IMG/VR virus record: IMGVR_UViG_3300033075_001617 | Span: 13,560 to 77,559 of that record | Strand: one strand, 5' to 3' | DNA: 64,000 nucleotides | Source of the DNA: a virus | Taxonomy: Duplodnaviria > Heunggongvirae > Uroviricota > Caudoviricetes | Part shown: positions 2,902 to 42,865 of the stretch, piece by piece | Layout: each line of letters begins with the position of its first letter | Position numbering within the stretch: position 1 is the stretch's first letter | The notes under the pieces: generated by a model | The model's database searches: none | Told to the model about the DNA's origin: nothing | What the model saw: the letters and a program-made list of their open reading frames with translations, nothing else | Translations under genes and position numbers: made by a program

Positions 2902-3869
2902 GGGGTGTACTTCGCTTCGGCGTCATCACGCGTCAGGTCCCTATAAATACCTTCCAGCGACCGCCTTATGCCTTCTGCGGGGATATTCCCAGTCATCATG
3001 CCCTCCATGACGGATATCATATTCTGTGGTTCCTCTTGGTACAACTCCTGTAGATAGTACTCCATCACCTCCGGTCGCCTGTCGGTAAGGTCAGCGAAAT
3101 TCCCGCGCAAGAAATCCCTGACCATGGCGTATACCTGTTCCCCGTACTTCAGGTCGATGGCCTCATTCCGGTTGGTGTCGGTATACTCCATGACCGCCTC
3201 GGCTATAGCGTGGTCCTTCGGGAGCCCGCTCATGGCGATCAATTCGTACATGCCCTTGATGGTTTCATGTATGAGCACCGGCATAATGATGGCTTCCGCC
3301 TGTATGACCCACCTCCCGTTCTTGTGCTCCAAATGCATTCTACCCAGTATCCGTGATTTCTGTGCATCCCCTTCGGACTTGGACTCGATAAGCTCATCAG
3401 GTGTCGCCCGCATGTACTTCAAGTTCAGTTCGTTGAAAATGTCGTAGGCCTCGACCAGTTCAGGGTTCGCCTCTCTAAAGTCATCACGCAGATGATGAAC
3501 ACCATGTGTTCCTATACTGGCGCCCTGTGTCATCATGTTGATGGCCTTGCGCTTACGATAGAGGTCCATAAGCTCCGCATTGAACTTGGGCTCCTCCATC
3601 GCTCCGGGGTCTGGTGGCATGATATAGTCCACGAGCTTCGCCTTCACTCGGACCCAACCCTTGTTGTTCATGAATATGGGGAAGTTGTTGAAGACGATGG
3701 ATGTCGCCAGCCGCTCCATTTCCTCTCGCATCGGTCGCTCGAACTCTTGAATGAACATCAACGCGTCACGCATGTCGATGAGGTCACCGTAAGACAACGG
3801 CTCCAATGGAATGCGCGCCTTGACCGCATCTACCACCTCGCGCGAGAACACATCACCTATCCTCAGCAT
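2898..3869 (-). CDS. hypothetical protein
   Basis: 323-aa ORF in the operon. No diagnostic motif recognised. Confidence 0.5.
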   Translation of the reverse strand: MLRIGDVFSREVVDAVKARIPLEPLSYGDLIDMRDALMFIQEFERPMREEMERLATSIVFNNFPIFMNNKGWVRVKAKLVDYIMPPDPGAMEEPKFNAELMDLYRKRKAINMMTQGASIGTHGVHHLRDDFREANPELVEAYDIFNELNLKYMRATPDELIESKSEGDAQKSRILGRMHLEHKNGRWVIQAEAIIMPVLIHETIKGMYELIAMSGLPKDHAIAEAVMEYTDTNRNEAIDLKYGEQVYAMVRDFLRGNFADLTDRRPEVMEYYLQELYQEEPQNMISVMEGMMTGNIPAEGIRRSLEGIYRDLTRDDAEAKYTP

Positions 3870-4011
3870 TCTTCGGGCGGGGTATGGGTGTGGTCTCCGG
3901 GTCGGGGTATATCCGACGTCTCGGTATCACAACAGGTTTCGCAGGGGCTATCTCAACCTCTTTCTCTCTTTCCATCATGCAGTAACTTGCATGATGTAAA
4001 TATAGCAACCC

Positions 4012-4545
4012 CTAAGGAAAGGTTATGTAAGAGACTGGCACGTGGTCCGTGAGCCACACACCGTTGTCGGAGATGAAGAACTTGTGACCATCGTTGTGCA
4101 TGTGCTTTGCGGCCACCTCCAAGATGATGGCCTCACCCCGCCGCGTTCCGACCTTGGTGGCGGTCTCAACGTCCTTGGATAGATGCACGTGATGGCGGCT
4201 CATCTTTTGGAGACCCTCCTTCTGTATGGGGCCCAAGAACTTCTCGACCGTACCATGATAGAGGACCAGAGGCGGTACTTGCGACTTGAGGCCAAGGTCC
4301 ACATCGAGGGAGTGACCCTGTGCGGCTCTTATGCGCAGTCCGTCCTCGCTCAGGACATATCGTTTCTTGTCGTTCTCCGCCACGATGGATTCCAATTCTT
4401 CCCGCGTGACGACCTTGTTGTGCTTGGCCAGTTGCGACAGAAGCACGTCCACATCGACCCACCCCGCCTTGTCCAGTTTGATGCCTATGGTCTCAGGCTT
4501 ATGCCGCAGCACCAAGCTGAGGAATCTCGATACGTCTTTTCCCAT
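4012..4545 (-). CDS. kptA: RNA 2'-phosphotransferase Tpt1/KptA
   Basis: Near full-length match to the KptA/Tpt1 family: SRFLSLVLRHKPETIGIKLDKAGWVDVDVLL, RIRAAQGHS, LYHGT, HVHLS, GVWLT. 177 aa, typical size. Confidence 0.93.
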   Translation of the reverse strand: MGKDVSRFLSLVLRHKPETIGIKLDKAGWVDVDVLLSQLAKHNKVVTREELESIVAENDKKRYVLSEDGLRIRAAQGHSLDVDLGLKSQVPPLVLYHGTVEKFLGPIQKEGLQKMSRHHVHLSKDVETATKVGTRRGEAIILEVAAKHMHNDGHKFFISDNGVWLTDHVPVSYITFP

Positions 4546-4690
4546 CAGTTTGCGTATGCGGCGTACGTCGGCTTCTTTGGTCGTGTCGTTCTGGTAGGCC
4601 GTTCACTGAAGGTCACCAAAAGCACCAAGGCGAATACACCCACGGTGAGCGCTCCTATGGTAAGCACATCCAATATGTCATTTGTCTTTT

Positions 4691-6223
4691 TCATGCAAGC
4701 TTTGCTTTTTTCATTACCTCCAACTTCATCTTCTCGTAGCCATAAATATCCGACATCGGCTTGCGAATGTGAACATCGTTCGTATTCATTAGGATATCGC
4801 TCATCATGAACTCCGATGGATGCTCATACCCAGCGGCATAGGTCAAAGCAAGGATGTCCTTGCGGAGCGTCTTTATGAACCGCGCGATGCGTGGCGACTT
4901 ATCGTTGATATCGAAGCCGCGCTGAAGCCACCAGTTGTGGGTGGCGATACCAGCGGGGCATGTTCCCAATGCGCACTGCTTGGCCTGAATGCAGCCAGCC
5001 GACAACATGATCTCGCGGGCGATATTGATCATGTCGGCACCCATGGCGAAGGCGCGTACAGCCTTGGCCGGAAGTCCCAGTTTGGCGGATGCGATGAATA
5101 CCACCTTATCAGTAAGACCTTGCGTTTGGAACGCCTTGTAGACAGTCGTGAAAGCGTCGTTGAACGGCAGGCTCATGTGGTCGGAGAACGGAACGGGAGC
5201 GGCGCCTGTGCCACCTTCTCCACCATCGATGGTGATGAAGTCCGGACCCTTGCCCGTCTGTGCCATGCGCTCAGCCAACTCCAGCCAGAAGTCCTCTTTG
5301 CCGACCGCCGACTTGATGCCAACGGGCCTGCCCGTGTAGTCGGCGATCAATTCCACGAAACCGATGAGCTTGTCGACCGAGTCTATGCCATCGTGGTTGG
5401 CTGGGGAGATAACGTCATGACCTTTAGGGACGCCACGAATGGCGGATATCTCGTCGGTTACCTTGTCAGCGGGGAGCACGCCTCCCTTGCCAGCCTTGGC
5501 TCCCTGCGATAGCTTGATCTCGATGGCTTTGATCGATGGGTTTTTTGCGATCAGGTCCATCAGGATGGTCATGTCGAACTTGCGCTTGCCATCGGGCATC
5601 GTAATGCCGCAACCGAAGTAACCTGTTCCTACTTGGAAGACCACTTGATCCGCCCCCGCGTGATAGGGCGAGAATCCTCCCTCTCCCGTATTATGATATG
5701 CCCCGGCCTCGCGCGCCCCAAGGCCGTTCGCCATGGTAGCCTTCCATCCCAAGGCGCCATAGCTCATGGCGGAAATGTTGATGATGGATGTCGGCTGATA
5801 GGGATGCTTGCGGCGTGGACCTATTACCTTCCGGCATCCGACCTGATCCGTGTGTGGATCCTCCTTGGGAAATCCTGCGGGTAGGATGAAGAAATGGTCA
5901 TTCGATGTGAAATCGGCATCCGAGCCGAAGCCCATAAGGTTGTTCTGGTCCTTGGCTGAGGCATAGATGTAGGTACGCTCAACACGATTGAATGGTTGTC
6001 CATTCCTATCATTCTCAACGAAGTACTGCTGGATCTCGGGACGCACTTTTTCCGCGACAGGGCGAGCATTCCCTATCAGGGGGAAGTTGGTTTGGATGGT
6101 GTGCTTCTTGTTGAAGAAAAGGTCACGCACCAGCAAAACCAGCGCAGCAAGAACGACCGCAACGGTGATGCAGCCAATTGCGATGATGGCCATCATACCA
6201 ATATCGATGAACATTGTGCGCAT
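4691..6223 (-). CDS. glutamate-synthase domain-2-like FMN-dependent oxidoreductase
   Basis: GltB central-domain signatures GEGGFSPYH, ISPANHDGIDS, IDGGEGGTGAAP and GLPAKAV..AMGAD. N-terminal hydrophobic segment. 510 aa. Confidence 0.75.
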   Translation of the reverse strand: MRTMFIDIGMMAIIAIGCITVAVVLAALVLLVRDLFFNKKHTIQTNFPLIGNARPVAEKVRPEIQQYFVENDRNGQPFNRVERTYIYASAKDQNNLMGFGSDADFTSNDHFFILPAGFPKEDPHTDQVGCRKVIGPRRKHPYQPTSIINISAMSYGALGWKATMANGLGAREAGAYHNTGEGGFSPYHAGADQVVFQVGTGYFGCGITMPDGKRKFDMTILMDLIAKNPSIKAIEIKLSQGAKAGKGGVLPADKVTDEISAIRGVPKGHDVISPANHDGIDSVDKLIGFVELIADYTGRPVGIKSAVGKEDFWLELAERMAQTGKGPDFITIDGGEGGTGAAPVPFSDHMSLPFNDAFTTVYKAFQTQGLTDKVVFIASAKLGLPAKAVRAFAMGADMINIAREIMLSAGCIQAKQCALGTCPAGIATHNWWLQRGFDINDKSPRIARFIKTLRKDILALTYAAGYEHPSEFMMSDILMNTNDVHIRKPMSDIYGYEKMKLEVMKKAKLA

Positions 6224-6228
6224 AGTCA

Positions 6229-6283
6229 GGTTTTATTCTGTTATACGAACAGGGCGGTGATTTTGTTTCACCGCCCTGTTCGT
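6229..6283. other. long perfect hairpin (15-bp stem, loop TTTTGTT)
   Basis: cgaacagggcggtga-ttttgtt-tcaccgccctgttcg, immediately upstream of the GltS-like gene start. No flanking T-run, so not a classical terminator. Confidence 0.5.
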
Positions 6284-6467
6284 GCGACATGGAACCTTTA
6301 TGCCCCGTCGTCCTCGGTGTGTACCGAAGTGACCTTCTTGGACCTCTTCAGCTTCTTGTGTGTGATGTTCTCGGCAAGGATATCATCTCTCATGTCCTTC
6401 ATCAAGAACTCAAGCATCTCCCATGTCAACTTCTTGCCTATCAGTGGCGCGTATTTCTTGTTATCCA

Positions 6468-13113: not shown

Positions 13114-13682
13114 TTTCTTGTCTTCTTTGACAAAGGTAGGCTTTGTTTCATGACATAGAAAGGAGCAACGACCCCGGAGTTGAAATGCTCTGCGGCTTCC
13201 AAGGCCTTGGTGATGCGTGTGACGGGCTCGATGTCCTCCGTCATGTACAAAGAGCCCAAGGCGAACCTCCCACCACTGCCGATGGCCGCGTAGTCTCGCT
13301 CCCACTCACTGACCTGAAAGTCGTCCTGCACCTCGTAGAGCTTGCCATTGAACCCCACAAGGAAGGTACCTCCCTCATTGTCCTCATGTTCGGGCGTGAA
13401 TCCATATCCATTGTTGGAGAAGCACCGTCTCACCTCATCAATGAACCGCGTCGTCATGAAACGCATGTCATCCATGAGTTTCGGTTTGGTGGGTATCTTC
13501 AGAGAGTACTGAAGAAGCTGCCCCATCCTGAAAGACCCGCACCATCCGATAAGCATTGGCCCATTGACAAAGACTTTCGGTTGTTTGATCCTATTACGAT
13601 CAAAGCTTTCTGTTTCACACGATGCGCTATCGCCTCCGATGTAGACGGCCTGCTTATGAACTATGCCGACGATGCAGGTCAT
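13110..13682 (-). CDS. proteasome-beta/HslV-like Ntn-hydrolase peptidase
   Basis: N-terminus MTCIVGIVHKQAVYIGGDSAS matches the proteasome-beta/HslV motif T-x-I-V-G-x...-I-G-G-D-S, with Thr at position 2 as the predicted nucleophile. 190 aa. Confidence 0.7.
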   Translation of the reverse strand: MTCIVGIVHKQAVYIGGDSASCETESFDRNRIKQPKVFVNGPMLIGWCGSFRMGQLLQYSLKIPTKPKLMDDMRFMTTRFIDEVRRCFSNNGYGFTPEHEDNEGGTFLVGFNGKLYEVQDDFQVSEWERDYAAIGSGGRFALGSLYMTEDIEPVTRITKALEAAEHFNSGVVAPFYVMKQSLPLSKKTRK

Positions 13683-14910: not shown

Positions 14911-14983
14911 TGACCCGTGAGAGATTCGAACTCTCAGCCTTACGCTTAGGACGCGTGCGCTCATCCACTTGAGCTTCCGGGCC
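14911..14983 (-). tRNA. tRNA-Arg (anticodon CCT)
   Basis: Manual cloverleaf: acceptor GGCCCGG/ACGGGTC, D-arm GCTC-AAGTGGAT-GAGC, anticodon arm CACGC-GTCCTAA-GCGTA, T-arm GAGAG-TTCGAAT-CTCTC, discriminator A. 73 nt. Confidence 0.75.
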
Positions 14984-15011
14984 GATGGCGCTAAGATAGG
15001 AAAAGAAGTAT

Positions 15012-15311
15012 TCAGTCCTTCTCGATCTTCTTCAGCTTGTCGTAGTACTCCGGGTCCTCCCAGATGTGGTCCGTGGCGATCTCTCGGGCCACAGCTTCAT
15101 CGTTGGTGTGTTCCATCTCCACGTCAGTGCCCTTCCTCAACTGGCGCTTGATCAGCCAGATGCTCACACCGTGATGGTCCACTAGGTCCTGTTGGCTCTT
15201 GCCCGATGCGAGCCCTCCGGGAATGCGCTCTTGGGTTCCCTCATGGATCCACGCCCGGATGATGCTTCGAAGTTCGTCACTCATGGCAATAAATAGCCAT
15301 AAGAGGTCCAT
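15012..15311 (-). CDS. hypothetical protein
   Basis: 99-aa ORF. Confidence 0.45.
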   Translation of the reverse strand: MDLLWLFIAMSDELRSIIRAWIHEGTQERIPGGLASGKSQQDLVDHHGVSIWLIKRQLRKGTDVEMEHTNDEAVAREIATDHIWEDPEYYDKLKKIEKD

Positions 15312-15322
15312 TCAGGGTTTGT

Positions 15323-15682
15323 TCAACGCGTCAGATACAAAGCCTTGGCCAACTCTGCCGCCTTGGCCCGCTGACCCTCCTCGAAGCTCTTCTGCTTCTC
15401 CCTCAAGATCCTCTTGCGGGCCTCTGCCGGAGAAAGGCGCGTGAGCACGATCTTGTCCAGCCACTCATTGATCCGGGCCAGTGGGGCCTTCTCGTCTATC
15501 ATCTGTTGGAGCCGCTTGCCCTCGACCGTGTCCTTGAAGATCTTCATGCCCACGTCAAGGAAACAACGGGATATCCAGAATGAGACGCCATCCTGAGAAA
15601 TGTCGTTGTTTCCCTCGATCTCGAACACGAGTATCGCAGAGCACCCCTTGGGGCCGTTGCCGATGATGATGTCGTCCCACAT
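15323..15682 (-). CDS. hypothetical protein
   Basis: 119-aa ORF. Confidence 0.45.
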   Translation of the reverse strand: MWDDIIIGNGPKGCSAILVFEIEGNNDISQDGVSFWISRCFLDVGMKIFKDTVEGKRLQQMIDEKAPLARINEWLDKIVLTRLSPAEARKRILREKQKSFEEGQRAKAAELAKALYLTR

Positions 15683-15732
15683 ACGGTGTTATACGAAGAT
15701 GGACAGCGTAATGTTTCAACGTAAGAAAGGGG

Positions 15733-15768
15733 CCCCGGCGCCGGGCCCCTTTCCCCTTGAGTCAATGA
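15733..15768 (-). terminator. rho-independent terminator (GC hairpin + T-run)
   Basis: aaaGGGGCCCCGGCGCCGGGCCCCtttcc. Strong hairpin with A-run and T-run flanks, in an intergenic gap. Confidence 0.5.
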
Positions 15769-15881
15769 GCAGATGATCCCACAATCCGTGCCCGAGTCAT
15801 GAGCCTCGAACAACCCTCTGGTGCGCTTCTACGAGAGGCGTAAGGTCTACTTGTGCAAATGTAAGAGATAATGTTCAATGT

Positions 15882-16064
15882 TCAAACAGACCCGCCAGAC
15901 GCAGCGGAAAATCCGGCCATCGTCGTTCCGTCTATGCCGCCATGACCTTCGTTCTTCTTTGAGGGCCTCGGCGGGCGCTCGATCCACCACATGTAGAGCG
16001 GGCCCAAGACAATGGGAGCGATGGCGCAGATCAGTATGAATATGCCGAGCGCTTGTGTGTGCAT
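15882..16064 (-). CDS. hypothetical small membrane protein
   Basis: Internal Met chosen to avoid overlap. One TM helix. Confidence 0.3.
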   Translation of the reverse strand: MHTQALGIFILICAIAPIVLGPLYMWWIERPPRPSKKNEGHGGIDGTTMAGFSAASGGSV

Positions 16065-16072
16065 GGATGTGA

Positions 16073-16438
16073 TTATGCTTCTATCGCGACAGACTTCTTC
16101 CTCCACGAGATCATCACGTCCACCTCGTATCCACCCTTGTCATCCGGCTGGAATCCCACATGAGGATGGGTCACCTCATATCCTTCCTCTTTCAGAATGA
16201 CGCTCATTCTTGGCGACAACAAGAGCCTTGCATCGGACCTGTCCAAGACGGGGCCGTCACCATAGGATAGTATGCTCCCCTTCAAGATGATGTTGCTCCT
16301 TCCGATGGAGGCCGCCTCGCGGATCTTCGCATTGATCGAGGCAGTGGCACTCTCCTCAAGCGCATCCCACTTCTCTAGGCCTTTGGCGGTCAACTCTGCG
16401 GCCTCCTCTTTCGATATGAACTTGGTATTTGACATCAC
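16073..16438 (-). CDS. hypothetical protein
   Basis: 121-aa ORF. Confidence 0.45.
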   Translation of the reverse strand: MMSNTKFISKEEAAELTAKGLEKWDALEESATASINAKIREAASIGRSNIILKGSILSYGDGPVLDRSDARLLLSPRMSVILKEEGYEVTHPHVGFQPDDKGGYEVDVMISWRKKSVAIEA

Positions 16439-16476
16439 TATAGTGTTTGTATCAATATAGCCTATGTCGGCAGCTA

Positions 16477-16565
16477 CTCCAAATTGTGATCCCGACAGGA
16501 TTCGAACCTGTAATGTTGTCTCATCAACAACGCACGCTTAGGAGGCGTGTGCAATATCCGCTCTG
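16477..16565 (-). tRNA. type-II (long variable arm) tRNA-like gene with anticodon CCT
   Basis: Acceptor GGTCCCG/CGGGATC, anticodon arm CACGC-CTCCTAA-GCGTG, 23-nt variable arm hairpin TGTTG-ATGAGA-CAACA, T-arm ACAGG-TTCGAAT-CCTGT, discriminator A. 89 nt. Confidence 0.55.
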
Positions 16566-16594
16566 CCACGGGACCGTTTGTTGGATCGTTATGT

Positions 16595-16939
16595 TCACTC
16601 CTCACCCCACATGACCTTGCAATCGAAGTCGTATTTGGCCGGGCCGATGCTTGAAAATATGCTTGGCCAAACCACCACTCTGTACCCCTTGCTCTCAAGC
16701 AGGTTCTTCAGCTTCTTGGTCATCACAGGCGCTTTCGTAAAGCGGGAAAAACATGGAAGCCCCTCTGCGTCTGGACAACGTCCATGCATGGTTATCACCC
16801 GCTCCCCCACCATGACGGCTTTCTCCAATTCCCTCTTGAAGTTCTGCAAAGCCTTTTCTTCCATCTCTTCCGTGCTCCAGAGAGAAACACAGTTGTCGCA
16901 GGCGTCGCTGGCCTCTTTGGCTGTCATTATATCTTCCAT
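16595..16939 (-). CDS. hypothetical protein
   Basis: 114-aa ORF. Confidence 0.45.
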   Translation of the reverse strand: MEDIMTAKEASDACDNCVSLWSTEEMEEKALQNFKRELEKAVMVGERVITMHGRCPDAEGLPCFSRFTKAPVMTKKLKNLLESKGYRVVVWPSIFSSIGPAKYDFDCKVMWGEE

Positions 16940-17021
16940 CCTGCAAAGATAAGGTTACTTAGCCGTTGCTATGCAACGTTTCCGATCATCGCCGACGTGG
17001 AGGCGAACCTTGTTGATGATC

Positions 17022-17094
17022 CACACGTGGAGGGATTTGAACCCCCAACCTTCGCTTTTGGAGAGCGCCACTCTACCAGTTGAGCTACACGTGT
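17022..17094 (-). tRNA. tRNA-Trp (anticodon CCA)
   Basis: Acceptor ACACGTG/CACGTGT perfect, D-arm GCTC-AACTGGTA-GAGT, anticodon arm GCGCT-CTCCAAA-AGCGA, T-arm GGGGG-TTCAAAT-CCCTC. 73 nt. Confidence 0.7.
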
Positions 17095-17109
17095 ATTCTA
17101 CTTCTATCG

Positions 17110-17185
17110 CACGCGCTGATCGAATCGAACGATCCCACGGGAATTTGGAGTTCCCGTCGCCTTTATCCTTGGAACATTAGCGCGC
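17110..17185 (-). tRNA. tRNA-like gene with CCA anticodon loop and non-canonical D region
   Basis: Acceptor GCGCGCT/AGCGCGT (7/7 with one G-U), anticodon arm ACGGGAA-CTCCAAA-TTCCCGT, T-arm GATCG-TTCGATT-CGATC. D-arm not foldable canonically. Confidence 0.4.
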
Positions 17186-17689
17186 ATGTACTTTTGATTC
17201 CTCCTTTGATACGAACGGGGTCAGCGCGCTCTGAGGAACAAAGAACGCGTGCCTTTCATTGCCGGATGGGTCGGACCAGTACTTCTGCTGCTTACCATCC
17301 GACCCCTTGATGAAGCCTCTTATCGCGAACGTCGGCGCTTTTCCCGTGAGCAAGAAGAAGAGCGCGTCGTCGCTGTCCTTCTCGTGCAATATCAATCGCC
17401 CGGTGTTGTATGATGTGGACCTGCATTCGATGCGCAGGTCCGGCATGTTCACATCTGAGGCCTTCAGGTCACCCATGTTGCCGTTGTAGAAGCATCCAAG
17501 CGCCTTGGCCAGCACCATCTCCGCGCATGCCCCCTCGATGTGGACTCCCCATCCATCCATTGTTTCGGCGCCGTACGCGTCCTTGAGCCCATTGCCCAAG
17601 TTATGCATCTGACGCATGATGCCGTACTGTACTCCGATAAAGAACTCTGTCTTGCTCAATGTGATCTTCATATTGCAAAGATAGCACAT
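17177..17689 (-). CDS. hypothetical protein
   Basis: 170-aa ORF between tRNA-like genes. Its last codons overlap the tRNA-like element at 17110-17185. Confidence 0.45.
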   Translation of the reverse strand: MCYLCNMKITLSKTEFFIGVQYGIMRQMHNLGNGLKDAYGAETMDGWGVHIEGACAEMVLAKALGCFYNGNMGDLKASDVNMPDLRIECRSTSYNTGRLILHEKDSDDALFFLLTGKAPTFAIRGFIKGSDGKQQKYWSDPSGNERHAFFVPQSALTPFVSKEESKVHAR

Positions 17690-17698
17690 CGATTGTAG

Positions 17699-17803
17699 CA
17701 GGCCTGACAGGAGTTGAACCTGTACATCGGCAGAGAGCGGTACCTCAGTCTGCCGAAAGGAAATTTGGAGTCTCCTCGTCTCGCCACGTGAACTAGCTGG
17801 CCT
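17699..17803 (-). tRNA. tRNA-like gene with CCA anticodon loop and a 35-nt extended variable region
   Basis: Acceptor AGGCCAG/CAGGCCT (6/7), anticodon arm GGAGA-CTCCAAA-TTTCC, variable region containing hairpin GGCAGA...TCTGCC, T-arm ACAGG-TTCAACT-CCTGT. 105 nt. Confidence 0.4.
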
Positions 17804-17809
17804 GTATTG

Positions 17810-17888
17810 TACCCCCGACAGGATTCGAACCCGCGTCTTCCGCTCCGCTACAGATAACCGCTTAGAAGGCGGAACTGGCTAAGGGGGC
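17810..17888 (-). tRNA. tRNA-like gene, candidate anticodon TCT, atypical D region
   Basis: Acceptor GCCCCCT/CGGGGGT, T-arm GCGGG-TTCGAAT-CCTGT, stem-loop CCGC-CTTCTAA-GCGG. Only a 9-nt connector lies where the D-arm should be. Confidence 0.35.
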
Positions 17889-18245
17889 ATGGCGATGTGA
17901 GGGATGGGTCAGAATTTTTAAGACCTCGGTCCGCATTGGCCTTCGCCCATGCTCTTGTCGCCGTCCCCATTTCACATCATTGCACAGACGGTGGCAATCG
18001 AAACCACTCGCGAAGATTTTGGAGATCCCGCCGACACCAAGCCTGTCGTCTGTATGGCGGAGAGCACAGCATCGAAGCTGATACGGCTCATCACCGTACG
18101 ACGCGCTTAGCAGGCGGTCCCCAGCTACCTGCCGGGCTTACTCTCCATTGAATTCTGCGGAAGACAGCGTACTCGAAACGCAGTCGCTTTCACGACCTCA
18201 ACGCTTTCCAAGCGTGACCAATCCCTGACTGGTTTGTCTTCCAAA

Positions 18246-18968
18246 TTACAACACGACTTTCAATCCCATATTTTTCAGATCAGTACCCATCAGAACCTTG
18301 AGTGGAAATGGGAATTCTTCCCACTTAGCCAGATCCTGTTCCGTCTTGTATCCCTTGATCTCAACATAGCAATTCTCATCTATCAAAAAGAAGTCTGGAT
18401 AATATGTCCTCTTATCGCCGTTCCACGCATAAGAGAATCCAGTTGTGTTCGCTTTCCATCTTACTCCATTAGCATCCAACCACTTCACGTATTCTAGCTC
18501 ATATGAGCTTCGCACATATACTTTACCAGCTATGTGGCTGTTATACCATTGTTTCACTCCCCGTCCACTGCCTTCCCTCATTCCTCCAGCCTTAGGATTG
18601 CCCTTCATTGCCTTGCTGATGTTTCTTCTTCTTTTCTCTTCGGCCTCCTCAGTATTGGCACAACCAACAGGAAACCCTCTGAGTATTCTAGTTTCTATTG
18701 CCTTTTTACCATTCTCTATCCACCTAGAATCTCCTTTGAACTTCTTTCCCTTATTCCATGGCGTCTTATCAGCTTCAGCATATCCAGCGGTATTATGAAA
18801 TTGTACACCACAGAATTTTCCCTTCTTAGCCGCAGAGTCCTTACTTCTTTTTGCTGTACAAGAATTTGGTGACTTGCTGCACCCATTACCACCATTGGCA
18901 TAATGAAACAATGCTGGCAGTCCACATCCGTAATCACATAACAATTTATCCATTGTACAACATAACAC
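18246..18968 (-). mobile_element. homing-endonuclease-like gene (Zn-ribbon + PD-(D/E)XK nuclease) inserted in the tRNA cluster
   Basis: Cys-rich N-terminus (CDYGCG...C..C) and C-terminal YYPDFFLIDENCYVEIKG fitting a PD...E-x-K nuclease motif. Free-standing gene between tRNA genes. Confidence 0.5.
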
Positions 18969-19099: not shown

Positions 19100-19104
19100 A
19101 ATTG

Positions 19105-19333
19105 TCCTCTGAACGGGAATCGAACCCGCACATCCCATTGCAAATTGAACTCGGAAACGCGCTTCCCTACGGACCCCACGGCCTTTCGGTGCTTCTGCAA
19201 CCATACGCTCAATACCCCATACCGTACTTGCTCAGGCGAAGCCCTCATCGCTTTCCGTAACAGGTCTTCGGGACCATGTTCACCACATGCCACCTTTCGT
19301 TTTACGTGTGCTCTTCCGTTGAGCTATCAGAGG
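19105..19333 (-). tRNA. interrupted tRNA-like gene: 5' half and 3' half separated by ~165 nt
   Basis: 5' half CCTCTGA-TA-GCTC-AACGGAA-GAGC at 19333-19310 and 3' half GCGGG-TTCGATT-CCCGT-TCAGAGG-A at 19129-19105 have perfectly complementary 7-bp acceptor strands. Neither half has its own partner nearby. Confidence 0.4.
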
Positions 19334-19412: not shown

Positions 19413-19489
19413 TGGTGATCCCGGCAAGGCTCGAACTTGCGACTGTCAGATTAGAAATCTGATACTCTGTCCAACTGAGTTACGGGACC
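19413..19489 (-). tRNA. tRNA-Arg (anticodon TCT), CCA encoded
   Basis: Acceptor GGTCCCG/CGGGATC, D-arm ACTC-AGTTGGACA-GAGT, anticodon arm TCAGA-TTTCTAA-TCTGA (perfect), T-arm GCAAG-TTCGAGC-CTTGC, followed by A-CCA. Confidence 0.8.
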
Positions 19490-19516
19490 AATCTTACTTA
19501 ACTGAAGCAAAGATAG

Positions 19517-42387: not shown

Positions 42388-42865
42388 CGGTTGTCGGTAT
42401 TGGATAGTGAATCTGTGGCTGGAATTCCAGCACGATAAGGTCCGTCATTTCCTTGATCTTCTCCTTCTCTGCCGCCATCATGATCTCGAACTCCGGCATA
42501 AGCAGGTCCGGGAACTCATCCAGATGGAACCACTTCTGGTCCGCCAGTCCGCCCTCGGTGAGGATGTCGGCCTCCACTTCACTGTTGAAGAAGCCGAGAA
42601 ACGTATAGTAGATGACACGTTCATCCTCATAAACATGCACGGGCTCCTCCACGAAGTGGTAGGGCGTGTCGATGCGGGTCTCTTCCCAGAACTCACGCTT
42701 GGCGCATGATTGCGGCGTGATGTCGATGCCATCCTCGAATTTTCCTCCCCATGAGGCCCACGTGTTGCCGTACATCACGTGAGGATGACGCTTCGACAGC
42801 AGCGCCCTGTCGGTGTTGATGCAGATGGGCAGGACGCCTGCTGCGATGATCTTCTTGGTCTCCAT
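42377..42865 (-). CDS. Nudix hydrolase (second copy)
   Basis: GGKFEDGIDITPQSCAKREFWEETRI approximates the Nudix box G-x5-E-x7-REUxEE. Confidence 0.55.
   Translation of the reverse strand: METKKIIAAGVLPICINTDRALLSKRHPHVMYGNTWASWGGKFEDGIDITPQSCAKREFWEETRIDTPYHFVEEPVHVYEDERVIYYTFLGFFNSEVEADILTEGGLADQKWFHLDEFPDLLMPEFEIMMAAEKEKIKEMTDLIVLEFQPQIHYPIPTTDGK

Follow-up and report, generated by a model that had tools for sequence, protein, structure and literature searches.

We analyzed a stretch of 64,000 nucleotides from a tailed phage (Caudoviricetes; IMG/VR record IMGVR_UViG_3300033075_001617, positions 13,560 to 77,559; hereafter the window) and, within it, a tRNA island in which ordinary tRNA genes stand beside aberrant copies carrying the same anticodon. 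We consider it fairly probable that this is the fast-changing tRNA island of a large phage, holding three non-canonical, conserved and working tRNA lineages beside ordinary class I tRNAs. The three are a tRNA-Arg(CCU) on a class II body (16487-16575), a tRNA-Trp(CCA) with a long variable arm (17699-17803) and a tRNA-Arg(UCU) of rewired secondary structure (17810-17888). Compensatory changes were found in other phages for these three of the five aberrant copies, and because the three recur there with such changes, they exceed chance. The comparison shows that they are conserved structures under selection, that the anticodon of each lineage is confined to one amino acid and that the nucleotides serving as identity elements in bacteria fit that amino acid. 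Most likely, the three lineages are working Arg and Trp tRNAs.

Loci from other phages or contigs used for comparison carry L-numbers; L001 came from IMG/VR, L002-L004 from NCBI and Logan metagenome assemblies, and L005, which is more distant (~70-78% identical), from JGI. A first-pass annotation, made from the letters of the window alone, had described canonical tRNAs accompanied by aberrant paralogues with the same anticodon. This description stands, as the aberrant copies are not ordinary cloverleaves and automated tools keep the same anticodons. Every element that it listed was found, all on the minus strand, but it overlooked a further CCA-loop gene (17982-18053) and a ribozyme candidate.

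A tRNA-Arg(CCU) on a class II body

The class II-bodied gene had been correctly recognized at first pass as an 89-nt gene with a CCU anticodon, a long variable arm and discriminator A, although its coordinates were 10 nt off (16487-16575, not 16477-16565). Both ARAGORN and RNAfold give it acceptor and T stems of 7 and 5 bp (7/5), and its RNAfold minimum-energy fold is a textbook class II cloverleaf. We assigned it to class II since its variable region exceeds 10 nt and has its own helix, a 6-bp stem with a GAUGA loop that is kept by compensation. Homologues are located at 4351-4439 of L002, 6020-6108 of L005 and c1770-1853 of L010, the last of which represents, with L022, an unrelated phage of 39% GC (one contig 447 kb). 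In an alignment of four sequences, 96.2% of cells pair, compared with 34-49% in slid controls, and both sides change in 12 of 27 pairs. When the window is compared with L005 alone, full compensation accompanies the replacement of the variable stem and of four of the five anticodon-stem pairs, and the GAUGA loop is kept. Two contigs, each from a lineage already known, were recovered when metagenomes were scanned with the class II Arg(CCU) pattern.

The nucleotides of this gene point to two sources. Its acceptor stem and A73 are identical to those of the canonical tRNA-Arg(UCU) at 19413-19489, and its nucleotides 8-26 and anticodon stem match the phage tRNA-Ser(UGA). In Escherichia coli the main Arg determinants are A20 and C35 (PMC9976931); here the D loop reads GGA, giving A20, and the CCU anticodon supplies C35, so that together with A73 the sequence marks of tRNA-Arg are present. 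Bacterial tRNA-Ser is marked by a long variable arm, G1-C72, G2-C71 and G73 (PMC9976931). Judged by these rules, 16487-16575 departs from tRNA-Ser, having G2.U71, U3-A70 and A73 where the phage's own Ser genes have G2-C71, A3-U70 and G73. By its sequence the gene is a composite of a Ser-type D arm, anticodon stem and long variable arm with an Arg-type acceptor, discriminator and GGA motif, as would result if the acceptor, discriminator and GGA of a Ser-derived class II body had been switched to Arg type.

A long-variable-arm tRNA-Trp(CCA) lineage

The gene at 17699-17803 indeed has the long variable region noted at first pass, but this measures 33 nt rather than 35. It forms an 8-bp hairpin, which likewise places the gene in class II, and the RNAfold structure of the whole gene is cloverleaf-like. 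The only Rfam match (17701-17802) was a weak one to the tRNA-Sec model RF01852. A tRNA-Sec identity was rejected, as the 21.8 bits obtained fall short of the 47 needed and the anticodon is CCA, not UCA. Searching IMG/VR with the D-region pattern of this gene returned 52 stretches, of which ~14 were tRNA-like, mostly on contigs of 34-366 kb, and members of the lineage are now known from at least 14 phage loci. Nine of them were used to build a covariance model, R1. A similar genome scan with the Trp D-arm pattern gave mostly chance matches in coding DNA, apart from two arrays that had this D arm in a tRNA-Tyr.

Together with the window group, the set comprises 16 sequences with variable regions of 12-34 nt. 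MAFFT left these unequal arms out of register, and the variable arms were therefore judged from per-sequence folds: all 16 form a variable hairpin, each with a different stem sequence. G73-C74 ends all 16 genes, U72 is found in 15 (the exception, L010b, has G1-C72) and A1-U72 in 13, with G1.U72 in the L002 and L001 subfamily copies; most copies also carry C2-G71. As far as sequence goes, they agree with the identity rules of bacterial tRNA-Trp (CCA, G73 and the first base pair; PMC9976931). The acceptor stem of the L001 homologue of 17699-17803 differs in sequence but stays complementary. At L053, L063, L067 and L076, the long-arm gene is the only Trp tRNA within the stretch examined.

The body of this lineage is shared with a phage tRNA-Tyr. 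Its D arm, anticodon stem and short variable hairpin recur in the tRNA-Tyr(GUA) of arrays L082 and L090, which scores 73 bits with R1 versus 35 bits for the canonical Trp gene of L090. The Tyr and long-arm Trp genes differ in the anticodon, the first pair (G1-C72 versus A1-U72) and the discriminator (A73 versus G73).

Long-arm tRNAs for Asn, Gln, Val, Glu, Thr and Pro were also seen beside canonical copies in megaphage contigs from IMG/VR (L053, L062, L063, L064 and L076). Their discriminator and first pair suit the amino acid of the anticodon where readable, for example G73 in Asn, A73 in Val and U1-A72 with G73 in Gln; the Pro copy could not be read. Based on these sequences, the class II-body phenomenon looks general in very large phages.

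Class II bodies and the meaning of AGG and UGG

The first-pass annotation had remarked that type II bodies with an Arg or Trp anticodon would normally be mischarged. In an explanation by deliberate missense or recoding, seryl-, leucyl- or tyrosyl-tRNA synthetase (SerRS, LeuRS or TyrRS) would charge the class II bodies, and AGG and UGG would yield Ser, Leu or Tyr. SerRS recognizes above all the long variable arm (PMC9976931), and the bodies resemble both nematode V-arm tRNAs and allo-tRNAs, which insert Ser in E. coli despite non-Ser anticodons (PMC5389517); the window also contains a CUA suppressor tRNA. The acceptor ends speak otherwise. In the Arg(CCU) copy, other nucleotides replace the Ser acceptor marks and G73, and A20 and C35 are present; the long-arm Trp genes have A1-U72, G73, which opposes LeuRS and TyrRS, and mostly C2-G71, which opposes SerRS, so that mischarging of either is unlikely. 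An allo-tRNA identity of 16487-16575 is ruled out by its 7/5 fold in ARAGORN and RNAfold, where 8/4 or 9/3 would be expected.

Codon use points the same way. AGG accounts for 127 of 513 Arg codons (25%) in 21 large window genes. In the large subunit of ribonucleotide reductase, AGG codons 132, 248 and 770 fall in the DRD, IR and YY(L/V)RT motifs and align with invariant Arg of human RRM1 (5d1y_A), and 10 of 13 TGG codons align with Trp, TGG likewise occupying invariant positions. With AGG and UGG thus encoding conserved Arg and Trp residues, recoding is unlikely, and AGG read as Ser or Leu would strike essential residues. We therefore regard the missense explanation as extremely improbable. 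Heavy AGG use is also a plain reason for carrying both CCU and UCU tRNAs.

Recoding of stop codons was considered separately. Read-through statistics of open reading frames (ORFs) for TAG, TGA and TAA were uninformative, and the large genes are intact in the standard code, TGA terminating 13 of the 21. Hirsh-type reading of UGA by Trp tRNAs with an odd D arm (U11-A24 pair) was left as speculation, TGA being the main stop codon in the window.

A rewired tRNA-Arg family

The gene at 17810-17888 was confirmed as a UCU-loop gene that does not form an ordinary cloverleaf. It is kept in L005 and, as two copies with UCG and UCU anticodons, in the 362-kb phage contig of L064. In a first alignment of four sequences, 93.4% of cells pair and both sides change in 15 of 27 pairs. 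Further members were collected with two IMG/VR patterns, one of which left the anticodon unspecified. We defined the family by a 7-bp acceptor, U8, a 3-bp D stem whose strands enclose a 3-bp extension, an anticodon arm with UCU or UCG and the D-loop string UAR-NN-GGA, and a standard T arm. It comprises at least 62 distinct sequences from 75 phage loci with GC contents of 25-63%, mostly 79-80 nt long. The anticodon is UCU or UCG in all 62, including those obtained with the anticodon-free pattern; the acceptor stem is a perfect 7 bp in 54, and a genomic CCA follows the discriminator in 29.

In an alignment of 55 sequences (A8), 94.1% of cells pair, compared with 37-48% when slid. Covariation supports the acceptor, a 3-bp helix, a 3-bp extension, the anticodon stem and the T stem. 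The 3-bp helix joins positions 9-11 to the strand after an invariant GGA (pair 10-49 is GC in 28 and AU in 25 sequences and unpaired in none), and pair 13-38 of the extension is GC in 44 and AU in 10. A purine three bases before GG pairs with a pyrimidine just before the T stem (42-56; AU in 45, GC in 7), and this pair behaves like the 15-48 Levitt pair of ordinary tRNAs. U8 and the A preceding this purine are invariant in A8. The window gene aligns without rearrangement in A8 and in alignment A4, every helix pairing. We infer that the anticodon arm does not follow the D arm but is inserted after the 5' strand of the D stem and ahead of the D loop. It would thus branch from inside the D arm, with the D loop and the 3' strand of the D stem coming after it. 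The nucleotides of the tRNA core are kept, namely U8, A14, the 15-48-like pair, G18 G19 and the T loop. A GGAG motif invariant in the family and the UCU or UCG anticodons provide sequence marks for Arg.

By default, ARAGORN passes over nearly all such genes, finding 3 of the 55 (missing 52); in mitochondrial mode it finds 12, 11 of them labelled Arg. Scores with the Rfam tRNA model lie near its cut-off; among six loci tested, five members scored above it (30.8-44.5 bits). The family also extends to cultured phages. The 50-kb Pseudomonas phage HHBS10_2 carries a member ending in GCCA (PQ287653.1, ~42654-42733; L169 581-660) that is neither annotated in the record nor found by ARAGORN, and relatives are present in PA11, TC6, IME180 and other P. 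aeruginosa phages. Our tentative reading, to which we would give a little less than an even chance, is that 17810-17888 represents a so far unrecognized architecture, a functional tRNA-Arg with a nested anticodon arm and retained U8-A14, 15-48-like and GG/T-loop core contacts that is widespread in phages of many hosts. If true, phages would be maintaining alternative body plans for tRNAs, the rewired Arg being one and the class II-bodied Trp and Arg tRNAs others.

In only 16 of the 75 loci does a canonical Arg tRNA share the anticodon of the rewired gene. Where arrays contain 16-33 ordinary tRNAs, the rewired gene is often the sole one with UCU or UCG. These observations bear on whether the odd copies are decoys or sponges, absorbing host anticodon nucleases or other tRNA-binding defence proteins and sparing the working tRNAs. 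There is ample literature on defences that target tRNAs and on phage tRNAs that act against these (PMC10264068, PMC11464382, PMC13096335). The strict conservation of anticodon loops on differing bodies would suit a decoy, the island also has tRNA-like minihelices and an anticodon-less copy that could not decode, and the related L010 array holds an RNA ligase. A decoy would have no need, however, of the identity nucleotides, encoded CCA and perfect acceptor stems that are kept. Moreover, the rewired Arg is the sole UCU/UCG tRNA found in most loci and the sole tRNA-like gene of the stretch examined in 14; where it is the only tRNA found, there is no phage tRNA to protect. We consider decoys unlikely.

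Immediately 5' of the rewired gene, between two tRNA-like genes, lies a structured RNA (17889-17975). Four pairs of its long closing helix differ in a compensatory manner between the window and L005. Its 25-nt core, CGGACCGAGGTCTTAAAAATTCTGA, is invariant between the two, and its folding z-score is -2.5. The segment is not a conserved ORF and matched no Rfam family. A hammerhead was considered and rejected, as no CUGANGA core was seen by eye and no Rfam ribozyme matched.

Two CCA-loop copies without comparative support

Two aberrant copies differ from those above. The gene at 17109-17185 carries the CUCCAAA loop reported at first pass (as 17110-17185), but the description of its D region as unfoldable was too strong, since a weak D hairpin folds and the minimum-energy structure from RNAfold is cloverleaf-like, with G1.U72 and G73. 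The 5' strand of its acceptor overlaps the last codons and the stop of a 170-aa ORF. Its first 36 nt persist in L001 and L002, where the remainder is replaced from the anticodon loop on; the 3' half has a homologue in none of the loci compared. In L005, the 170-aa ORF ends differently and is directly followed by a canonical Trp gene. The second copy, 17982-18053, also folds into a cloverleaf-like structure (RNAfold) and scores 30 bits with R1. Its only counterparts, in L001 and L002, have the same sequence, and it therefore yields no covariation evidence. Each of the two could be functional or a recombination product on its way out, and 17109-17185 may be a recombination remnant.

A rival explanation is decay, in which endonuclease-driven duplication yields extra copies that drift into pseudogenes, an option also raised at first pass. 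The partnerless 5' fragment of 17109-17185 in L001 and L002, with its 3' half lacking a homologue, and the absence of distant relatives of 17982-18053 agree with it, as does the mosaic state of the island even between relatives that are 98% identical. The long-arm Trp gene of L001 is a further example, its variable arm being interrupted by a reverse-strand ORF that matches homing-endonuclease PHROGs, with no canonical T arm recognizable by eye in the copy. Pseudogenes, in contrast, would not be expected to keep their stems through double substitutions across distant phages, as 16487-16575, 17699-17803 and 17810-17888 do. Decay is thus not supported for these three, while the other two lack such conservation, and we judge it clearly improbable as an account of the aberrant copies.

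Relatives and mosaicism of the island

Between L001 and the window, 7.9 kb are 98% identical, yet the island differs blockwise. A different CCU tRNA follows the DUF5661 ORF in each of the three relatives, and the slot of 14911-14983 is occupied by different CCU tRNAs in L001 and L002. Homologues of the 170-aa ORF lie in tRNA islands in the closest relatives only (L001-L005), the distant ones being in unrelated temperate-phage regions. A distant-mode search of GenBank phages with the whole island (7 kb) gave generic tRNA matches and no relative, and no relative was found in IMG/VR for an FtsH-like anchor protein. L010, although from an unrelated phage, shares a Ser/Arg/Trp module, and its tRNA array contains a SegE-like GIY-YIG endonuclease and an RNA ligase (PF09414 with a PHA02142 OB domain). 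The phage endonuclease SegB is known to cut inside tRNA genes and to drive their amplification (PMC13096335), a precedent that the mosaic pattern of the island fits.

Features of L010 at 3095-4114 and 4464-5288 (both minus strand) correspond to the RNA ligase and the SegE-like endonuclease, and the edge of the locus (6100-6340) has three copies of a 36-nt CRISPR-like repeat.

Layout of the island and neighboring features

The coordinates of the features are collected in Table 1. The window encodes ClpB-like and FtsH-like ATPases, both ribonucleotide reductase subunits, a glutamate-synthase-like protein, a UvrD helicase, a sigma factor, a DNA ligase and a RecA-like protein, a set that fits a large phage. 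The free-standing endonuclease gene within the island also has a weak Pfam match to Phage_endo_I. At first pass, a phage ArgRS-like enzyme had been offered as a partner of the aberrant copies. This found no backing, as no ArgRS or other aminoacyl-tRNA synthetase was matched among the 31 window ORFs (minus-strand and large plus-strand) scanned with Pfam.

Table 1. Features of the tRNA island and related elements of the window
Feature	Position	Strand	Support
tRNA and tRNA-like genes of the island (all)	14.9-20.2 kb	minus	
tRNA-Arg(CCU), class I, 73 nt, discriminator A	14911-14983	minus	Rfam tRNA 42.8 bits
tRNA-Arg(CCU) on tRNA-Ser-like class II body, 89 nt, A73	16487-16575	minus	Rfam tRNA 54.1 bits; ARAGORN Arg(cct) (16486-16575)
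Hepatitis delta virus (HDV)-like (theta-type) self-cleaving ribozyme candidate	16950-17021	minus	RF02682 34.7 bits, E 0.003 over 18 kb
tRNA-Trp(CCA), canonical class I, A1-U72, G73	17022-17094	minus	Rfam tRNA 64.4 bits; default ARAGORN (17021-17095)
tRNA-Trp(CCA)-like gene, 7-bp anticodon stem, weak D hairpin	17109-17185	minus	Default ARAGORN
tRNA-Trp(CCA), long-variable-arm lineage, A1-U72, G73	17699-17803	minus	Model R1 48.8 bits, E 8e-9
Rewired tRNA-Arg(UCU), G1.U72, A73	17810-17888	minus	Rfam tRNA 23.1 bits, below cut-off of 29
Structured RNA, ~90 nt, immediately 5' of rewired tRNA-Arg	17889-17975	minus	Conserved in L005 (5141-5219)
Fourth CCA-loop (CUCCAAA) tRNA-like gene, 72 nt, A1-U72, G73, 3-bp D stem	17982-18053	minus	ARAGORN, relaxed threshold only
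Ser(gct) gene	18055-18146	minus	Relaxed ARAGORN settings
Endonuclease gene, free-standing, homing-endonuclease-like, within the island	18246-18968	minus	phrog_15137 endonuclease, E 6e-12
tRNA-Arg(UCU), canonical, encoded CCA	19413-19489	minus	Rfam tRNA 65.2 bits (19416-19489); default ARAGORN
CUA-anticodon tRNA (amber suppressor-type)	29689-29758	minus	Default ARAGORN
Three Ser tRNAs in the window			Default ARAGORN

With the Rfam tRNA model RF00005 (gathering score 29 bits), the three class I genes and 16487-16575 score above the cut-off and 17810-17888 below it; 17109-17185, 17699-17803 and 17982-18053 gave no match at E<=10. The genes for tRNA-Trp(CCA) at 17022-17094 and tRNA-Arg(UCU) at 19413-19489 are canonical, as reported at first pass. 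The tRNA-Arg(CCU) at 14911-14983 was likewise present with 73 nt, but is not the fully textbook type I tRNA that had been described, since it has A8, G32 and a G7/A66 mismatch; ARAGORN found it at a relaxed threshold only. The tRNA-Ser(GGA) at 18157-18242 (minus strand) folds in ARAGORN with acceptor and T stems of 8 and 4 bp, an (8/4) arrangement known for tRNA-Ser from some phages (PMC5389517).

Another tRNA-like gene of the island (19104-19333, minus strand) has a homologue at 3483-3703 of L005. Its 7-bp acceptor is fully compensated (CCUCUGA/UCAGAGG in the window, CGCCGAG/CUCGGCG in L005), and a highly conserved insertion of ~150 nt occupies the expected site of the anticodon arm, where no group I intron or other Rfam family was matched. 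A second cluster of tRNA-like oddities lies at 28900-29800 (minus strand) and includes the CUA tRNA. Three copies of a 46-nt minihelix, built from an acceptor stem and a T arm, are found there, as are two or three copies of a tRNA-like gene that lacks a D arm and has an 8-nt loop. In another tRNA-like gene (29324-29396), a GAAA tetraloop replaces the anticodon loop. A tRNA-Ile(GAU) (29176-29319) has 72 nt inserted in its anticodon loop, and an AAU-anticodon tRNA (28934-29112) has ~100 nt inserted in its variable region. After discriminator A, many non-canonical genes (16487-16575, 17810-17888, 19104-19333, 28934-29112 and 29689-29758) have a CAAU or CAAA trailer where the canonical Arg(UCU) gene encodes CCA; the trailer may be a shared processing signal.

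The ribozyme candidate begins at 17021, one base past the tRNA-Trp discriminator at 17022, and its score lies below the RF02682 gathering score of 44. Its 3' end is overlapped by the TAnnTTTG motif of the next ORF. This promoter-like motif has 26 minus-strand and 7 plus-strand occurrences in the window, where ~10 are expected, and stands ahead of the island's small ORFs and of the canonical tRNA-Arg(UCU) (at 19515, 26 nt upstream). As TAnnTTTG is the -7 promoter element of Bacteroidota, the host probably belongs to this phylum.

Each tRNA or tRNA-like gene of the island is preceded by a small ORF with its own TAnnTTTG motif. With this arrangement, a ribozyme candidate marking one 3' end and minihelices repeated in the second cluster, the layout could suggest non-translational elements, that is, RNase P/RNase Z processing punctuation of small-ORF transcripts, regulators or primers. 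Nothing of this kind would call for an anticodon restricted to one amino acid, a conserved loop format or an encoded CCA, and we find the explanation very improbable.

Proposed mechanism, doubts and significance

If the three lineages are working tRNAs, host ArgRS and TrpRS would charge them, and they would decode AGG, AGA and UGG, which the phage uses heavily. Homing endonucleases would keep duplicating, replacing and recombining the tRNA genes of the island, and canonical and non-canonical copies may be adjacent because of this reshuffling. More speculatively, two body plans per anticodon might keep translation going in the face of host nucleases that recognize the shape of tRNAs. One possible reason for alternative bodies is that they evade host enzymes reading the standard shape, an attractive idea in view of current work on tRNA-targeting defences.

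Several points weigh against this account. Expression, processing, charging and decoding are inferred from the gene sequences, and the identity rules were worked out in E. coli, Thermus and Bacillus rather than in Bacteroidota. Only three phage lineages were found to have the class II Arg(CCU) type, and some serylation of the class II copies is possible given that the long variable arm is the main SerRS determinant. The minimum-energy fold of 17810-17888 differs from the comparative structure, and its Rfam tRNA score is 23.1 bits; with no normal D arm, its acceptance by bacterial EF-Tu and ribosomes is presumed. Counts of loci with a sole copy are drawn from stretches of 1-15 kb, not whole genomes. 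Finally, 17109-17185 and 17982-18053 lack comparative support.

Should these genes be working tRNAs, phage tRNA counts are underestimated, given the 3 of 55 rewired Arg genes found by default ARAGORN and at least one unannotated case in a cultured Pseudomonas phage record. The rewired family keeps the nucleotides of tertiary contacts and alters strand order, and could reveal directly which parts of the tRNA core are required by ArgRS, EF-Tu, RNase P and the ribosome. The class II-bodied Trp and Arg tRNAs would be identity switches across class I and class II and could template orthogonal tRNAs. If alternative bodies do escape shape-reading nucleases, this would point to undescribed defence systems; cultured hosts exist in which the idea could be examined.

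Comparison with known systems

Full-text literature searches gave no description of class II-bodied Trp or Arg phage tRNAs or of the rewired Arg architecture, although one may exist that they did not reach. Several known systems are related. In alloacceptor remoulding, described for mitochondrial and eukaryotic nuclear tRNAs (PMC4783518, PMC3923123), a duplicated tRNA keeps the body of one family and takes the anticodon of another, much as Arg(CCU) is here found on a Ser body and Trp(CCA) on a Tyr-like one. The phage switches differ in crossing from class II to class I identity with the long variable arm retained, in changing the acceptor stem and discriminator too and in occurring in islands with endonuclease genes. 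The allo-tRNAs and (8/4) tRNA-Ser of Mukai et al. (PMC5389517) also combine long variable arms with anticodons other than Ser, Leu or Tyr and occur in metagenomes and phages. However, they are 8/4 or 9/3 with Ser (or Ala) identity, whereas 16487-16575 is 7/5 with A73 and without G2-C71; in the window, only the tRNA-Ser(GGA) folds as 8/4.

The mitochondrial tRNA-Ser(GCU) that lacks a D arm (PMC7609411, PMC9976931) resembles the rewired Arg in that its acceptor and anticodon stems are not separated by an ordinary D arm although the molecule is still a tRNA. Unlike it, the rewired Arg keeps A14, purine 15, GG, A and a short D stem, placed 3' of the anticodon arm, and is found in phages of bacteria with specificity for Arg UCU/UCG. 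Theta (HDV-like) ribozymes, nested double pseudoknots with their cleavage site at the tRNA 3' end, have been described for phage tRNAs (PMC10879173), and the candidate in the window, a putative minimal HDV-like fold, has a matching position directly after a tRNA-Trp discriminator; it differs in scoring below the Rfam cut-off and in flanking the canonical Trp gene, not an aberrant copy or suppressor. Lastly, defence-evading phage tRNAs (PMC10264068), such as the T5 tRNA-Lys acting against PARIS (PMC11464382) and the SegB-amplified tRNA-Tyr acting against Septu (PMC13096335), are likewise copies of tRNAs that the host already holds, lie in homing-endonuclease islands and sometimes differ from the host tRNAs. 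They act through anticodon-loop substitutions or gene dosage, whereas in the lineages described here the anticodon loops are ordinary and it is the body that differs.

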